A DNA stretch of 41,687 nucleotides from a virus (taxonomy: Duplodnaviria; Heunggongvirae; Uroviricota; Caudoviricetes): the IMG/VR virus record IMGVR_UViG_2585427754_000009; one strand, 5' to 3'. The translations under genes and the position numbers were made by a program. This document shows, one piece after another, positions 12,014 through 17,486 of this stretch. Under the pieces are notes generated by a model. The model searched no databases, was not told where the DNA came from, and saw only the letters and a program-made list of their open reading frames with translations. Within the stretch, counting starts at the first letter, position 1, and every line of letters starts with the position of its first letter.

Positions 12014-13009
12014 GTGACCGTGAGAGCACTACTGACCCCTGAAATTGCCCCGCGTATGGGGATCGTATTGTTCAGGCCAGGTTCAGAGCTGATGCCCTTG
12101 TTTATGCAGGGGCGTGTCCTGCTGGAGCCTGAGCCGGAACGTTATTCATCTTTCGCCAGTGGTGCCGTTCCCGCGGCATCACAACCGCTGGCGGATGATC
12201 CTGCCGTTCGGGCCGTGTTCCGCAATGAGGCAGTGATCCGTCGTGCTGGTGGCGTGGAATGTCTTGAAAGCTGGTTACTTCGTGAAAAAGGCTGCCAGTG
12301 GCTTCATTCCGACTGGCACAGCGAGAACATGACAACAATGCGACACGCTCCGGGCGCAATCCGTCTGTGCTGGCACTGCGATAACCAGCTGCGCGATCAG
12401 TTCACGGAACGGCTGGAATCAATGGCAACGGATAACTGTGCCCGCTGGGTGTTGTCTGTTGTGCGTCGGGATCTCGGTTTTGATGACAGTCACGTTGTGA
12501 CAATGCCGGAACTGTGCTGGTGGCTGATTCGTAATGACCTTGCGGACGCCTTACCGGAAAGTGCAGCCCGTAAGGCACTGAGATTACCGAAGCCTGTTGT
12601 GCCGTCTGTCACCCGGGAAAGTGACCTTGTGCCTTCGGTTCCTGCCACCAGCATCATCCAGGATAAGGCGAAAAAGGTGCTGGCGCTGAAAGTGGATCCG
12701 GAGTCGCCGGAGTCTTTTATGTTACGCCCAAAACGTCGCCGCTGGGTTAATGAAAAGTACACGCGCTGGGTTAAGACACAGCCGTGTGCATGTTGTGGAA
12801 AGCCTGCTGATGATCCCCACCACCTGATAGGTCACGGTCAGGGTGGAATGGGAACAAAAGCGCATGACCTCTTTGTGTTGCCTTTGTGCAGAAAGCATCA
12901 CGACGAGCTGCATGCGGATACCGTGGCATTTGAAGAGAAGTATGGCTCCCAGCTGGAGCTGATATTTCGTTTTATCGATCGTGCGCTGGCAATAGGTGTA
13001 CTGGCGTAA
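12014..13009 (+). CDS. DUF968-family protein with C-terminal Cys/His (HNH-like) motif
   Basis: GTG start. C-terminal CACCGKPADDPHHLIGHGQGGMGTKAHDLFVLPLCRKHHDELH; position in the nin-like region upstream of Q. Confidence 0.6.
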   Translation: MTVRALLTPEIAPRMGIVLFRPGSELMPLFMQGRVLLEPEPERYSSFASGAVPAASQPLADDPAVRAVFRNEAVIRRAGGVECLESWLLREKGCQWLHSDWHSENMTTMRHAPGAIRLCWHCDNQLRDQFTERLESMATDNCARWVLSVVRRDLGFDDSHVVTMPELCWWLIRNDLADALPESAARKALRLPKPVVPSVTRESDLVPSVPATSIIQDKAKKVLALKVDPESPESFMLRPKRRRWVNEKYTRWVKTQPCACCGKPADDPHHLIGHGQGGMGTKAHDLFVLPLCRKHHDELHADTVAFEEKYGSQLELIFRFIDRALAIGVLA

Positions 13010-13022
13010 GTGGAGAACGAGC

Positions 13023-13775
13023 ATGAACCTTGAAGCCTTACCGAAATATTACTCCCCAAAATCTCCAAAATTGAGCGATGACGCACCGGCGACAGGCTCT
13101 GGTGGTTTAACAATTACGGATGTGATGGCTGCGCAGGGGATGGTGCAGTCGAAAGCACCGCTTGGGTTTGCCTTATTCCTGGCAAAAGTTGGTGTTCAGG
13201 ATCCTCAGTTTGCGATTGAAGGTCTGCTCAATTACGCGATGGCACTGGATAACCCGACATTGAATAAATTGAGTGAAGAAACCCGGCTACAGATTATTCC
13301 TTACCTTGTGAATTTTGCCTTTGCTGATTATTCCAGGTCTGCGGCAAGTAAGGCTCGCTGTGAGCATTGTGCTGGTACTGGATTTCATAATGTATTGCGC
13401 GAAGTGGTGAAACACTCCAGAAGCGGGGAATCTGTTATCAAGGAAGAGTGGGTGAAGGAACTATGTCAGCATTGTCATGGTAAGGGAGAAGTCAGCACAG
13501 CGTGCAGAGGGTGTAAGGGTAAAGGTATTGTCCTGGATGAAAAAAGGACCCGGCTTCATGGCACGCCTGTTTATAAGATTTGTGGGCGTTGCAATGGAAA
13601 TCGGTTTAGCCGTTTACCAACCACACTGGCGCGGCATCATGTCCAGAAGCTGGTACCAGACCTGACGGATTATCAGTGGTACAAAGGATATGCAGATGTC
13701 ATTGATAAACTGGTGACAAAGTGCTGGCAGGAAGAAGCATATGCTGAGACGCAATTAAGAAAAGTGACGAGATAA
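13023..13775 (+). CDS. Q: Late-gene antiterminator Q
   Basis: Start MNLEALPKYY with GGAGA RBS. Paired CxxC zinc-finger motifs (CEHCAGTG, CQHCHGKGE, CRGCKGKG, CGRCNG). Immediately followed by promoter and terminator. Confidence 0.8.
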   Translation: MNLEALPKYYSPKSPKLSDDAPATGSGGLTITDVMAAQGMVQSKAPLGFALFLAKVGVQDPQFAIEGLLNYAMALDNPTLNKLSEETRLQIIPYLVNFAFADYSRSAASKARCEHCAGTGFHNVLREVVKHSRSGESVIKEEWVKELCQHCHGKGEVSTACRGCKGKGIVLDEKRTRLHGTPVYKICGRCNGNRFSRLPTTLARHHVQKLVPDLTDYQWYKGYADVIDKLVTKCWQEEAYAETQLRKVTR

Positions 13776-13806
13776 ATGATTTTCGCCGAAGATGGCGACA
13801 TAATTC

Positions 13807-13835
13807 TTGCATTTTTCAAAAAATATGGATAAGAT
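13807..13835 (+). promoter_or_regulatory. Late promoter pR' (and presumed qut site)
   Basis: TTGCAT (13807-13812), 17-bp spacer, TAAGAT (13830-13835); 32 bp after the Q stop. Confidence 0.6.
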
Positions 13836-13883
13836 TTTCCCAACGATGGGCTTTGTATGTCTACCGTTGATAAGATTTAAGAC

Positions 13884-13906
13884 CCCGCCGCTGAGCGGGT
13901 TTTTTT
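13884..13906 (+). terminator. Intrinsic terminator tR'
   Basis: CCCGC-cgctga-GCGGG hairpin followed by T7; about 50 nt downstream of the pR' -10. Confidence 0.65.
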
Positions 13907-14025
13907 GTGCCTTGATGTTGGCAGTACGGTAAACACGCTGGTGGTCGTGAATACTGACTTTTTATCTTGCTGGCTTTTTAGACAAGAGTTATTGGTATGT
14001 CATGTTAACCAGAAGGAAAAAAGAC

Positions 14026-14220
14026 ATGCTAAAACAGCTAGATATGACAGAAACGGCGAAAGTTGTTTTTAATGAATTAAGCGTCGAACCGGCAACAGTC
14101 GGGGAGATAGCACAAAACACATACCTTTCACGCGAACGCTGTCAGTTAATACTGACCCAGCTGGTTATGGCGGGGCTGGCAGATTACCAGTTCGGCTGTT
14201 ACAGACGCCTTCAGCAATGA
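14026..14220 (+). CDS. Small hypothetical protein (64 aa), possible winged-helix
   Basis: Second in-frame ATG preferred (AAGGA RBS). Sits between tR' and a methyltransferase gene. No family recognised. Confidence 0.45.
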   Translation: MLKQLDMTETAKVVFNELSVEPATVGEIAQNTYLSRERCQLILTQLVMAGLADYQFGCYRRLQQ

Positions 14221-14369
14221 AGGGCTTTTAATTTGTGAAAATGGGCGGCTGGTGGGTGTTGGTAGCACCTGCCAGCCATTCGCTCATGCTTACTGGTCAC
14301 AAGCGAACCATGGCCCACTGCTTTAGCGCAAAAGCAGAGTGAGCCTACCAGAGTTACGCTTACTGATCC

Positions 14370-15422
14370 ATGAAAAATACTGTAAAAATAAACAGTATTG
14401 ATTTAATCAACGCTGATTGCCTGCATTTTATTCAGTCCCTGCCTGATGATTCCATTGACCTGATAGTTACCGATCCGCCGTACTTCAAAGTGAAGCCCAA
14501 CGGTTGGGACAATCAGTGGAAAGGGGACGAAGATTACCTTAAGTGGCTGGACCACTGTCTGGCTCAGTTCTGGCGGGTGTTAAAACCTGCCGGAAGCCTT
14601 TACCTGTTCTGTGGACATCGCCTGGCATCTGATATCGAGATCATGATGCGTGAACGTTTCAACGTGCTTAACCATATCATCTGGGCGAAGCCGTCCGGAC
14701 GATGGAACGGGTGTAATAAAGAAAGCCTGCGGGCATATTTCCCCGCTACAGAGCGCGTTCTGTTTGCTGAACATTACCAGGGGCCATATCGCGGCAAAAG
14801 TGACGGCTATGCGGAAAAAGAAAGGGAACTCAAACAGCACATAATGGCACCGCTGATATCGTATTTCAGGGATGCACGTGCCGAACTGGGTATAACGGCA
14901 AAACAGATTGCCGAAGCCACTGGTAAGAAAAACATGGTTTCCCACTGGTTTGGTGCCAGTCAGTGGCAGTTGCCGAATGAGGCTGACTACCGGAAGTTGC
15001 AGGCACTGTTTTCCCGTATAGCGGCAGAGAAGTTTCAGGAACAACAACTGGAACAGACACACCACCAGCTGGTGGCATCTTATGATTCACTGAATCGCAA
15101 ATATTCTGAATTGCTGGATGAGTTTAAATCTCTCCGGCGCTATTTCTCCGTATCAGTCTCCGTGCCTTATACCGATGTCTGGACGCATAAACCCGTTCAG
15201 TTCTACCCGGGTAAACATCCGTGTGAGAAACCGGCGGATATGCTCCGGCAAATAATCAATGCCAGTAGTCGACCAGGTGATCTGGTTGCTGATTTTTTTA
15301 TGGGATCTGGTTCCACAATAAAAGCAGCAATGGAGCTGGGGCGTCGGGCGTTAGGTGTTGAGCTTGAGTCAGATCGGTTTAACCAGACAGTGAAAGAGGT
15401 AAGTGAACTGGTGGGGAAATAA
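14370..15422 (+). CDS. Orphan DNA methyltransferase (N6A/N4C type, beta-class motif order)
   Basis: DPPY catalytic motif near the N-terminus (DLIVTDPPYF) and AdoMet motif FxGSGST near the C-terminus (FFMGSGSTIKAAMELGR). No adjacent nuclease gene. Confidence 0.8.
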   Translation: MKNTVKINSIDLINADCLHFIQSLPDDSIDLIVTDPPYFKVKPNGWDNQWKGDEDYLKWLDHCLAQFWRVLKPAGSLYLFCGHRLASDIEIMMRERFNVLNHIIWAKPSGRWNGCNKESLRAYFPATERVLFAEHYQGPYRGKSDGYAEKERELKQHIMAPLISYFRDARAELGITAKQIAEATGKKNMVSHWFGASQWQLPNEADYRKLQALFSRIAAEKFQEQQLEQTHHQLVASYDSLNRKYSELLDEFKSLRRYFSVSVSVPYTDVWTHKPVQFYPGKHPCEKPADMLRQIINASSRPGDLVADFFMGSGSTIKAAMELGRRALGVELESDRFNQTVKEVSELVGK

Positions 15423-15499
15423 TTCTGGTGGCCACGTTGCGTGGCCTTTTTATTTCCAACACAGCACCCGCAAATAATCGCGAGGTGAGAGATGACGAA

Positions 15500-15835
15500 A
15501 TGCCTCATAACCCAAATACCTGGCCGGACTGGCTGGAGTTGTTCCAGAGCTGGTGGCGTGGAGATACGCCGCTGGGCGCAGTGATTATGTCGATTGTTAT
15601 GGCTGGTTTGCGTATTGCCTATTTTGGTGGTGGTGGCGGCTGGAAACGAAAAACACTCGAAATTTTGCTCTGTGGCGCTCTGACGCTGACCTTTGCATCC
15701 GCGCTTGAGTATGTCGGATGGCCTAAATCGCTTTCTGTTGCCATTGGTGGTGGGGTGGGGCTGATCGGGGTCGATGCAATTCGTGGGGCTGCAATGAGAG
15801 TAATCGGTAACAAGTTTGGTGGCTCTAAGGAGTAA
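15500..15835 (+). CDS. Holin (three predicted transmembrane segments)
   Basis: ATG at 15500 (MPHNPNTW...). Hydrophobic segments LGAVIMSIVMAGLRIAYF, LEILLCGALTLTFASALEYV, LSVAIGGGVGLIGVDAI. Directly upstream of the endolysin. The GTG at 15428 is an alternative start. Confidence 0.7.
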   Translation: MPHNPNTWPDWLELFQSWWRGDTPLGAVIMSIVMAGLRIAYFGGGGGWKRKTLEILLCGALTLTFASALEYVGWPKSLSVAIGGGVGLIGVDAIRGAAMRVIGNKFGGSKE

Positions 15836-16931: not shown

Positions 16932-17486
16932 ATGAACGAAAATTATATTGCATATGAGACACTTGTAGCAAACCGTGCTGCTGCTGAGTGGGCTTGTTGG
17001 GCAATGATTGCATCTTGGGTGAGTGCTGGAGCTACTATTGTTACTTTGTTTTTGGCGTTCAAGGCATTATTTACGTGGCGGGAACAAGAGAAAACAAAAG
17101 TAAAAATAGATTTTAGGAATGCATTAAAGAAATTAAAGACAGCTCTATTATTTATGCCTGTCAATATTGACCCCGAGCAACTCAATGATGAACGAGAGCA
17201 AGTTATTGCGAAATGGCTATTTAAAGATGTAGATCTTATTAGTCAGCAAATTGAGTTGGGAGAAGAGAATGTTAAAAGATTTGATGAGCTTTTGAGTATT
17301 TTCGATTGTTGCCAATCTTCATGGTTTGCGACAGAGCACTTATTTGATAATACTGAGTTAGAAAAAGTTTGGCATGAGTTCGAGTCTAACTTTAATAAAT
17401 ATATAAATGGTGGTGAGAGTAAGGATTTACTTATGAAAATGCTTGATAAGCTCATCTCTTCTAGATTTGTATTTGAGTCAAGATAA
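16932..17486 (+). CDS. Hypothetical membrane-anchored protein (184 aa) on an AT-rich moron
   Basis: GAGGT RBS. One N-terminal TM segment (AEWACWAMIASWVSAGATIVTLFLAFKALF) then a Lys/Glu-rich helical domain. Local GC visibly far below neighbours. Between lysis cassette and HNH/terminase. Confidence 0.6.
   Translation: MNENYIAYETLVANRAAAEWACWAMIASWVSAGATIVTLFLAFKALFTWREQEKTKVKIDFRNALKKLKTALLFMPVNIDPEQLNDEREQVIAKWLFKDVDLISQQIELGEENVKRFDELLSIFDCCQSSWFATEHLFDNTELEKVWHEFESNFNKYINGGESKDLLMKMLDKLISSRFVFESR

Follow-up and report, generated by a model that had tools for sequence, protein, structure and literature searches.

Why does a lambdoid phage carry a gene for a protein of 64 amino acids (aa) and a DNA methyltransferase gene between the terminator of its late promoter and its holin gene, and how would such an enzyme be kept under control? 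The question arises from the IMG/VR virus record IMGVR_UViG_2585427754_000009 (Caudoviricetes), whose 41,687 nucleotides (nt) of one strand, read 5' to 3' (+), were analyzed as a whole and are called the window here. The locus studied is the late-operon head of a phage near-identical to Shigella phage SfV, and positions 13780-15500 share 96.9% nucleotide identity with SfV (NC_003444) across their full length. A previous reading of the letters and open reading frames (ORFs) alone, referred to as the sequence-only reading, had placed a 64-aa ORF at 14026-14220 and a methyltransferase at 14370-15422, between the Q/tR' terminator and the holin. Gene order and all coordinates were confirmed; what had to be corrected is that the spacer of 149 nt is not plain intergenic DNA and that a terminator-like hairpin lies over the stop codon of the small ORF. 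Judged by its alignments, this spacer is a conserved structured RNA with compensatory base changes, which ends at a start codon lacking a Shine-Dalgarno (SD) sequence. We propose, with evenly balanced confidence, that the cassette serves self-methylation against restriction, and that its late expression is tightly gated and controlled in a com-mom-like manner.

In a cross-genus alignment, the nucleotide sequence of the spacer was visibly better conserved than the small ORF before it, and an Rfam scan gave nothing overlapping 14221-14369, even at E ≤ 10. Pairing was evaluated in a plain MAFFT alignment of 47 distinct leader copies (A3), which also served as the seed of a covariance model. In this alignment, helix H1 was 97.5% paired with three covarying pairs, H1b was 96.5% paired, the long-range helix H3 covaried at at least three positions, and H4 covaried too. 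The alternative helix H2 covaried at four positions, with one pair found as CG, UA, AU, and UG, and another as UA (25) and CG (21) with no mismatches. Frequent G-U pairs fit only the + strand. Applied to the window, the covariance model returned one strong match (14234-14372, + strand, 153 bits), and the next best reached 16 bits (E = 0.06). The model further detected the leader in phages that were not part of the seed, i.e., Yersinia P840 and phiKO2 (48 bits), Vibrio MAR (45 bits), N15 (40.5 bits), and Aeromonas PhAER-1 and Vibrio Val-yong3 (31 bits, E ~3e-5); these matches span E-values from 2e-9 to 3e-5. When distant copies were added in an alignment fitted to the model (A6), 35 of 42 pairs had both-sided changes, compared to 13.8 +/- 2.2 in shuffled and at most 19 in slid controls. 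H2, which lies outside the model, was 77% paired in the distant-copy alignment, and five of its eight pairs were compensatory. Taken from these alignments, the leader is a candidate for a new, previously undescribed RNA family.

Two other accounts of the conserved spacer were considered and rejected. The 5' arm of H1 contains a Chi site (GCTGGTGG), which could have been the cause of H1 conservation. H1 pairing is, however, kept with entirely different sequences in the N15, Yersinia, Vibrio, and Aeromonas phages, which leaves Chi a secondary role at most. The second account was a leader peptide. The AUG-GGC-GGC-UGG-UGG frame in segment 1 of the leader has no SD sequence, stops after 3, 4, 7, or 33 codons among the members, and is probably non-coding.

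The position of the leader relative to the methyltransferase start suggests what it does. The duplex of the region before the methyltransferase AUG with the anti-SD sequence was calculated at -2.4 kcal/mol, versus -5.7 kcal/mol for the small ORF (AAGGA, 9 nt upstream of its start) and -8.6 to -10.5 kcal/mol for the lysis genes, and the start was SD-less in 29/29 family members tested. The minimum free energy (MFE) fold of the window leader (-62.2 kcal/mol) equals the covariation-supported combination of H1, H1b, H3, and H4; H3 pairs the 17 nt before the AUG at a probability of >0.9 and the AUG itself is unpaired. On the basis of this computed structure, the leader likely limits translation of the methyltransferase, and we consider it reasonably probable that it is a cis-regulatory RNA. 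As a separate observation, a perfect 8-bp hairpin (AATACTGT/ACAGTATT) with an 8-nt loop is located at 14376-14399, starting 6 nt past the AUG (codons 3-10). A similar hairpin occurs in Yersinia P840 and phiKO2, and the pairing is not separable from amino-acid conservation (NTVKINS).

The covarying H2 conflicts with H1b and H3. The best H2-containing fold is only 2.1 kcal/mol worse than the MFE fold, and since H2 excludes both H1b and H3, switching is suggested. Adjacent leader segments (1:2, 2:3, and 3:4) were predicted to pair at about -8 to -10 kcal/mol, compared to -2 to -5 kcal/mol for controls, and at 2:3 and 3:4 pairing was stronger with the cognate than with a non-cognate partner. A simple attenuator-like switch was nevertheless not supported: the segments pair well, yet masking of segment 1 in silico, mimicking a bound protein or ribosome, did not raise the accessibility of the start region in the window (0.37 to 0.30). 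The leader as a switch is therefore treated as an open hypothesis.

The enzyme behind this leader has the architecture of a beta-class N6-adenine methyltransferase, with the motif order DPPY (residues 35-38), central target recognition domain (TRD), and FxGxG (FMGSG, residues 310-314). It is 98% identical to SfV orf48. Comparison with M.EcoGII, whose sequence was taken from Supplementary Table S1 of PMC11551740, revealed 280/349 identical residues (80%), 90% positives, and two gaps over the full length including the TRD. By this similarity, the window enzyme belongs to the M.EcoGII family and would have little or no sequence specificity. M.EcoGII is a beta-class enzyme from a prophage whose adenine methylation is independent of sequence context (PMC5778455) and which can methylate RNA too (PMC5778455; PMC11551740); it is silent in the lysogen, and its expression is deleterious (PMC5778455; PMC12707154). 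Close homologues are carried by phage 1720a-02 and other enterobacterial phages (PMC5778455 / PMC12707154), and phage 1720a-02 was also among our cassette matches. Judging by family membership, an enzyme of this type could blunt many host restriction systems at once, yet be toxic to the cell. On these sequence grounds, a role in phage self-methylation is very probable, in which the late-operon module of a temperate phage would methylate the phage's own DNA before packaging.

Loci were gathered via the small ORF (21 of them from different bacterial species, plus 80 viral contigs), via the leader pattern (43 more), and from about 15 annotated phages. In all of them, comprising lambdoid, N15-like, Vibrio, and Aeromonas phages, the cassette lies between the late-promoter terminator and the lysis genes. 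The small ORF is followed by the methyltransferase in nearly all of the roughly 140 loci, with a fixed spacing of about 150 nt in the set found via the small ORF. The conservation of the pair, on which the sequence-only reading depended, was thus borne out, and it persists across genera, Q types, holin types, and even N15-like phages. Small-ORF loci without methyltransferase are contigs ending early and three deletion remnants (L019, L074, and L090), to which phiSTEC1575-Stx2k (L108, 3001-4114) is similar. In these four Stx-type or defective prophages, the small ORF is retained together with the leader's 5' half, whereas deletions have removed the methyltransferase or its N-terminus. The remnant of phiSTEC1575-Stx2k is located directly 5' of the tRNA-stx2 block, between Q and that block. 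In the other direction the linkage is looser: phages Flotzy, LLS, and Eeyore, the loci L116, L128, L143, and L149, and Vibrio MAR have leader and methyltransferase but no small ORF. The cassette was found in 2360/5426 complete E. coli genomes (43%), with up to eight copies per genome. Of the 3353 places in E. coli, 3340 are on chromosomes, annotated contexts having been inspected only for phage records and IMG/VR viral contigs. In many Stx2 phages, the cassette is located downstream of Q. The cassette itself is therefore ordinary in its occurrence, and any novelty lies in its control elements.

The sequence-only reading had offered two interpretations of the pair, a regulated epigenetic module or a controller (C) protein and methyltransferase remaining after the nuclease of a restriction-modification system was lost. 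In type II systems, C proteins like C.PvuII and C.AhdI are helix-turn-helix (HTH) dimers of the Xre type that bind C-boxes and control the nuclease gene. The window cassette resembles such systems in its superficial layout alone, i.e., a small HTH-like ORF directly upstream of a DNA methyltransferase, but lacks Xre HTH, C-box, and nuclease gene. The small protein gave no HTH_3 (Xre) match in Pfam, only short chance-level repeats and no C-box-like inverted repeat were present in 13900-14030, and none of the homologous loci inspected showed a nuclease gene next to the cassette. In eight genome loci, Pfam assigned the gene 3' of the methyltransferase to holins in five cases (four families: HP1, holin_8, P21 S, and lambda S) and to HicA in one; two genes had no Pfam match. 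The invariable place in the late operon next to the lysis genes and the multi-copy abundance in E. coli genomes also speak against a remnant. Since an M.EcoGII-type enzyme methylates adenine in any context, a cognate nuclease is implausible. We regard this origin as extremely improbable, and the regulated epigenetic module, which came close to the mark, is kept here in a sharpened form.

The small ORF is a real gene under purifying selection, as judged from dN/dS values (nonsynonymous to synonymous substitution rates) of 0.03-0.13 with synonymous sites near saturation, calculated against orthologues of Kluyvera, Citrobacter, Salmonella, Klebsiella, Buttiauxella, and others. An alternative start at ATG 14002 (72 aa) was rejected, as it has no SD sequence and homologues begin at MLKQ/MLNQ. 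The protein matches PHROG 331 (function unknown; E = 2.5e-34 over residues 1-63). At least 484 clusters were found for its family, and a second database search returned mostly close relatives. NCBI labels it as a 'TrmB family transcriptional regulator'. Pfam matches at E ~1e-3 to TrmB (18 bits), DprA_WH (17.8 bits), and MarR_2 (15.4 bits) are below the gathering scores of these models (23-27 bits). The family profile weakly matched the DsyB winged-helix domain in the PDB (E = 0.011), and other sequence searches against the PDB gave nothing stronger. The AlphaFold2 model places three helices at winged-helix positions with low confidence (pLDDT of 62). These matches suggest that the protein is probably a nucleic-acid-binding winged helix, in line with the 'putative DNA-binding' label of the sequence-only reading. 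The protein has two cysteines and no zinc-ribbon match in Pfam. Its net charge is acidic, and one invariant helix (CQLILTQLVMAGL) is very hydrophobic. In remote versions from Providencia, Hafnia, and Morganella-type phages, conservation is confined to MLKQxDMT at the N-terminus and the invariant CQL(I/L)LTQ helix. A second type, found in mEp460, cdtI, and Stx2c phages, is 49% identical and accompanies a 98%-identical methyltransferase and a near-identical leader. A distant homologue is gp51 of N15/phiKO2 (hhalign probability 92.9%, E = 3.7e-7; N15 gp51 to PHROG 331, E = 5.7e-28).

A hint at the role of the small protein came from cassettes in which it is replaced. Com is a translational activator that opens an inhibitory structure at the start of mom, the toxic DNA-modification gene of phage Mu. 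The Aeromonas and Vibrio cassettes have a Com-like zinc ribbon in place of the winged-helix gene. In Aeromonas PhAER-1, a 46-aa ORF (L158, 1371-1511) lies between the leader and the methyltransferase, which follows immediately. For this ORF, Pfam gave Zn_ribbon_Com (PF10122) at E = 7e-9, a match that passes the curated cut-off, and two PHROGs were matched, 'translational regulator' and 'gpCom control of modification'. Over the zinc finger, its identity to Mu Com is 40%. In Vibrio Val-yong3, a 38-aa zinc ribbon (L153, 1862-1978) at the same place matches the 'translational regulator' PHROG. Its GenBank label, 'DNA-directed RNA polymerase subunit P', looks like a misannotation. By analogy, the winged-helix protein of the window may fill a Com-like role, and we tentatively assign it as a regulator of the methyltransferase, with a confidence that falls somewhat short of even.

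The protein could instead be a partner subunit that restrains, targets, or redirects the enzyme, e.g., towards RNA, rather than its expression. A precedent is PNB-2, a winged-helix protein of Stx2 phages encoded directly upstream of the MT-A70 methylase M.EcoPA8orf6770P, which co-purifies 1:1 with the enzyme and directs methylation to 16S rRNA (PMC10810198). The tight linkage of small ORF and methyltransferase, the activity of M.EcoGII on RNA, and the acidic charge and hydrophobic helix of the small protein would also fit a partner. However, PNB-2 was rejected as a homologue (hhalign probability of only 9.8%) and its enzyme belongs to another family (PF05063), M.EcoGII is active and non-specific with no partner reported (PMC5778455), and the two small-ORF types pair with nearly the same methyltransferase. 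Cassettes without the small ORF exist, and the N15 homologue is located in a different transcription unit. We consider a partner subunit unlikely.

Of similarly low probability is that the small ORF is an independent moron-type gene, e.g., a regulator of other phage or host genes, which would travel with the methyltransferase only through a shared, insertion-tolerant slot behind tR' and leave control of the methyltransferase to the leader alone. The ORF has its own SD sequence, is preceded by a separate conserved element, and ends in a terminator-like hairpin; leader and methyltransferase occur without it; and N15 keeps its homologue upstream of the late promoter. With regard to moron criteria, terminator-like hairpins are present 3' of both genes, but a promoter scan of the + strand revealed no sigma-70-like promoter for either the small ORF or the methyltransferase. 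Methyltransferase-less copies of the small ORF look like deletion remnants, and the persistence of the association across such different phages further argues against independence.

We therefore favor the gated self-methylation module, in which expression of the methyltransferase would be restricted in three layers. The first is transcription. Judging by its position, the gene lies behind tR' and behind the terminator-like hairpin at the end of the small ORF, and access from the late promoter should be limited to polymerase that is Q-modified and terminator-resistant. Such gating fits the reported silence of the family in lysogens, and the position behind tR' and a second hairpin, together with the SD-less occluded start, is consistent with it. 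The second layer is translation, for which the structure was computed and the effect is our inference: the start is SD-less, the preceding 17 nt would be paired in the covarying leader, and the alternative helix H2 covaries as well. In the third and least certain layer, the 64-aa protein would act as the cassette's own nucleic-acid-binding regulator of methyltransferase expression, analogous to Mu Com in role and not in fold. A further-reaching version, which we find unlikely, sees the 140-nt leader as a new cis-acting riboregulator class for promiscuous phage methyltransferases that switches between an H1b/H3 'closed' state and H2. The PHROG 331 protein would then be a trans-acting RNA-binding effector, a fold-unrelated Com replacement, or an enzyme-retargeting subunit, and, as the cassette of many Stx2 phages is found between Q and stx2, the element would also lie in the stx2 transcript path.

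Several points weigh against this proposal. Some copies of leader and methyltransferase do without the small ORF, so its product is not obligatory in cis. The two small-ORF types are only 49% identical and stand beside 98%-identical methyltransferases and near-identical leaders. The small protein is encoded 5' of the leader and the Com-like genes between leader and methyltransferase, so they are not positionally equivalent. Its structure prediction is of low confidence, and the presumed non-specificity of the enzyme relies on 80% identity to M.EcoGII. On the side of the RNA, the A6 pair counts rely on a model-fitted alignment, H3 is weak in N15-like phages, and a simple attenuator-type switch is not supported, because masking of segment 1 left the start region unopened.

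The features of the locus are collected in the following table.

Features of the late-operon head in the window, with the basis of each assignment
Feature	Position	Strand	Basis and remarks
Q antiterminator gene	12996..13775	+	Pfam PF03589, E = 1.1e-53; 100% identical to SfV Q; start of late operon
pR'-like late promoter (candidate)	13808..13836	+	TTGCAT-17 nt-TAAGAT; read by eye at the position expected after Q
tR'-type intrinsic terminator	13884..13906	+	CCCGCCGCTGAGCGGG (13884-13899) + T7; terminator scan; annotated terminator in SfV
Conserved element 5' of small ORF	13966..14002	+	(C/G)TTGCTG-N11-(C/A)AGAGTTAYNTGTGTGTCA; kept across genera
Small ORF, 64 aa	14026..14220	+	ATG 14026, stop 14218-14220; PHROG 331; invariant motif CQL(I/L)LTQ
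P0, terminator-like hairpin over small-ORF stop	14208..14233	+	Hairpin 14208-14223 (CCTTCAGCAATGAAGG) + U-rich tract; terminator scan
Structured RNA leader of methyltransferase	14234..14372	+	Alignments, pair counts, covariance model, MFE structure
Leader H1	14247-14258 / 14266-14277
Leader H1b	14241-14246 / 14282-14287
Leader H2 (alternative)	14279-14284 / 14302-14307
Leader H3	14295-14308 / 14353-14368		Pairs 17 nt before AUG
Leader H4	14312-14324 / 14331-14345
Beta-class N6-adenine DNA methyltransferase, M.EcoGII family, 350 aa	14370..15422	+	Pfam PF01555, E = 2.4e-42, residues 29-341
Intrinsic terminator between methyltransferase and holin	15430..15456	+	Stem 15430-15446 + T-run; terminator scan, 7-bp stem, 6 GC pairs
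Holin S, lambda-S-type, lysis cassette start	15500..15835	+	Pfam PF05106, E = 2.6e-27; then endolysin, Rz

The pR'-like candidate was not reported by a consensus promoter scan. The order of terminator and cassette is also found in N15, phiKO2, and the Yersinia, Aeromonas, and Vibrio phages, and the terminator behind the methyltransferase is annotated at the equivalent place in SfV, N15, and phiKO2. By direct reading and with no statistical test, a hairpin at the P0 position was seen in other loci with different stem sequences, and P0 stays as a free-standing hairpin in the small-ORF-less copies Flotzy, L128, and L143. The conserved element 5' of the small ORF was absent from the small-ORF-less copies whose upstream sequence was read (Flotzy, L116, L128, L143, and L149). 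It is not palindromic, contains no C-box-like palindrome, and gave no sigma-70 match in the scan. A 10-nt piece of this element (ACCAGAGTTA) recurs at 14347-14356, just 5' of the methyltransferase start, only in the E. coli class.

Regarding other observations in the window, 17 exact Chi sites were counted in 41.7 kb, 14 of them on the + strand, compared to 1.8 expected from shuffles. Examples are 13937-13944, 14248-14255, 15068-15075, and 15549-15556, and one site is located about 80 nt 5' of the small ORF. This oriented enrichment suggests selection for protection from RecBCD. A 184-aa ORF (16932-17486) between Rz and the HNH/terminase genes gave no Pfam match at E ≤ 0.001 and is possibly a further moron. 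A Phytobacter prophage has a gene for the HicA toxin (L018, 7479-7697) inserted between the methyltransferase and the lysis genes, and the Yersinia P840 locus has a hicAB pair just 5' of the cassette. The slot of the cassette tolerates and accumulates small accessory genes.

The locus is of wider interest given the prevalence of the cassette among complete E. coli genomes. As it lies downstream of Q in many Stx2 phages, the route to toxin expression includes its terminators and RNA structure. M.EcoGII finds wide use as a reagent, and we found no description of the natural control of its family. An SD-less start behind a covarying leader, combined with a winged-helix or Com-like gene, leads to a testable model, in which a lethal restriction-blinding enzyme would be made only in the doomed cell. 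Annotation would benefit as well, with the leader as a candidate new RNA family and a function for PHROG 331.

Comparison with known systems places the cassette next to several others. M.EcoGII and M.EcoGI from E. coli O104:H4 C227-11 prophages (PMC5778455) share the beta-class architecture, the length of 349-350 aa, and the prophage location with the window enzyme; searching the text of PMC5778455 and PMC11551740 turned up neither the upstream small ORF nor the leader RNA nor the late-operon position. A near-identical cassette is orf47-orf48 of SfV, with 97% cassette identity, the same neighbours (Q, two terminators, and S-R-Rz), and no difference of substance; the two cassette genes are annotated there only as 'unknown' and 'DNA methyltransferase'. 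N15 and phiKO2 share the PHROG 331 homologue gp51 and a 56-60% identical methyltransferase, gp52, with the leader motif before it and terminator and holin after it, but gp51 belongs to a separate unit upstream of both the late promoter and the terminator, and the pairing of H3 with the start is weak. The annotated start of N15 gene 52 (L152) is at locus position 2235, and the tblastn match to the window enzyme starts at 2001 (MLKTTQINGAQLV...). Because this match begins immediately behind the leader motif, the gene as deposited probably lacks its 5' end (2001-2234). PNB-2 (143 aa) resembles the small protein as a winged-helix gene directly upstream of, and co-transcribed with, a phage adenine methyltransferase. 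It differs in showing no detectable homology, in its enzyme, which is of the MT-A70 type with a DPPW motif, and in its locus, which neighbours an antirepressor gene close to an end of the phage record and is not in the late operon.

A further comparison is with com-mom of Mu. Both systems have a toxic, promiscuous late modification gene, a gene for a protein of about 60 aa before it, and RNA structure around the start. In contrast to Com, the window protein is winged-helix-like, not a Cys4 zinc ribbon, and has no match to PF10122, and its ORF does not overlap the methyltransferase gene, being located 150 nt upstream and before the leader. A motif search found the leader motif absent from Mu com-mom. 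Com-like genes also precede the unrelated non-specific adenine methylases Hin1523/Nma1821/Hia5 in Mu-like prophages (PMC3299994), where the Hia5-type enzymes are Dam-like and not of the M.EcoGII family. Different phages thus repeatedly combine a promiscuous modification enzyme, encoded where the late or lysis operon begins, with a small dedicated regulator and a structured start.

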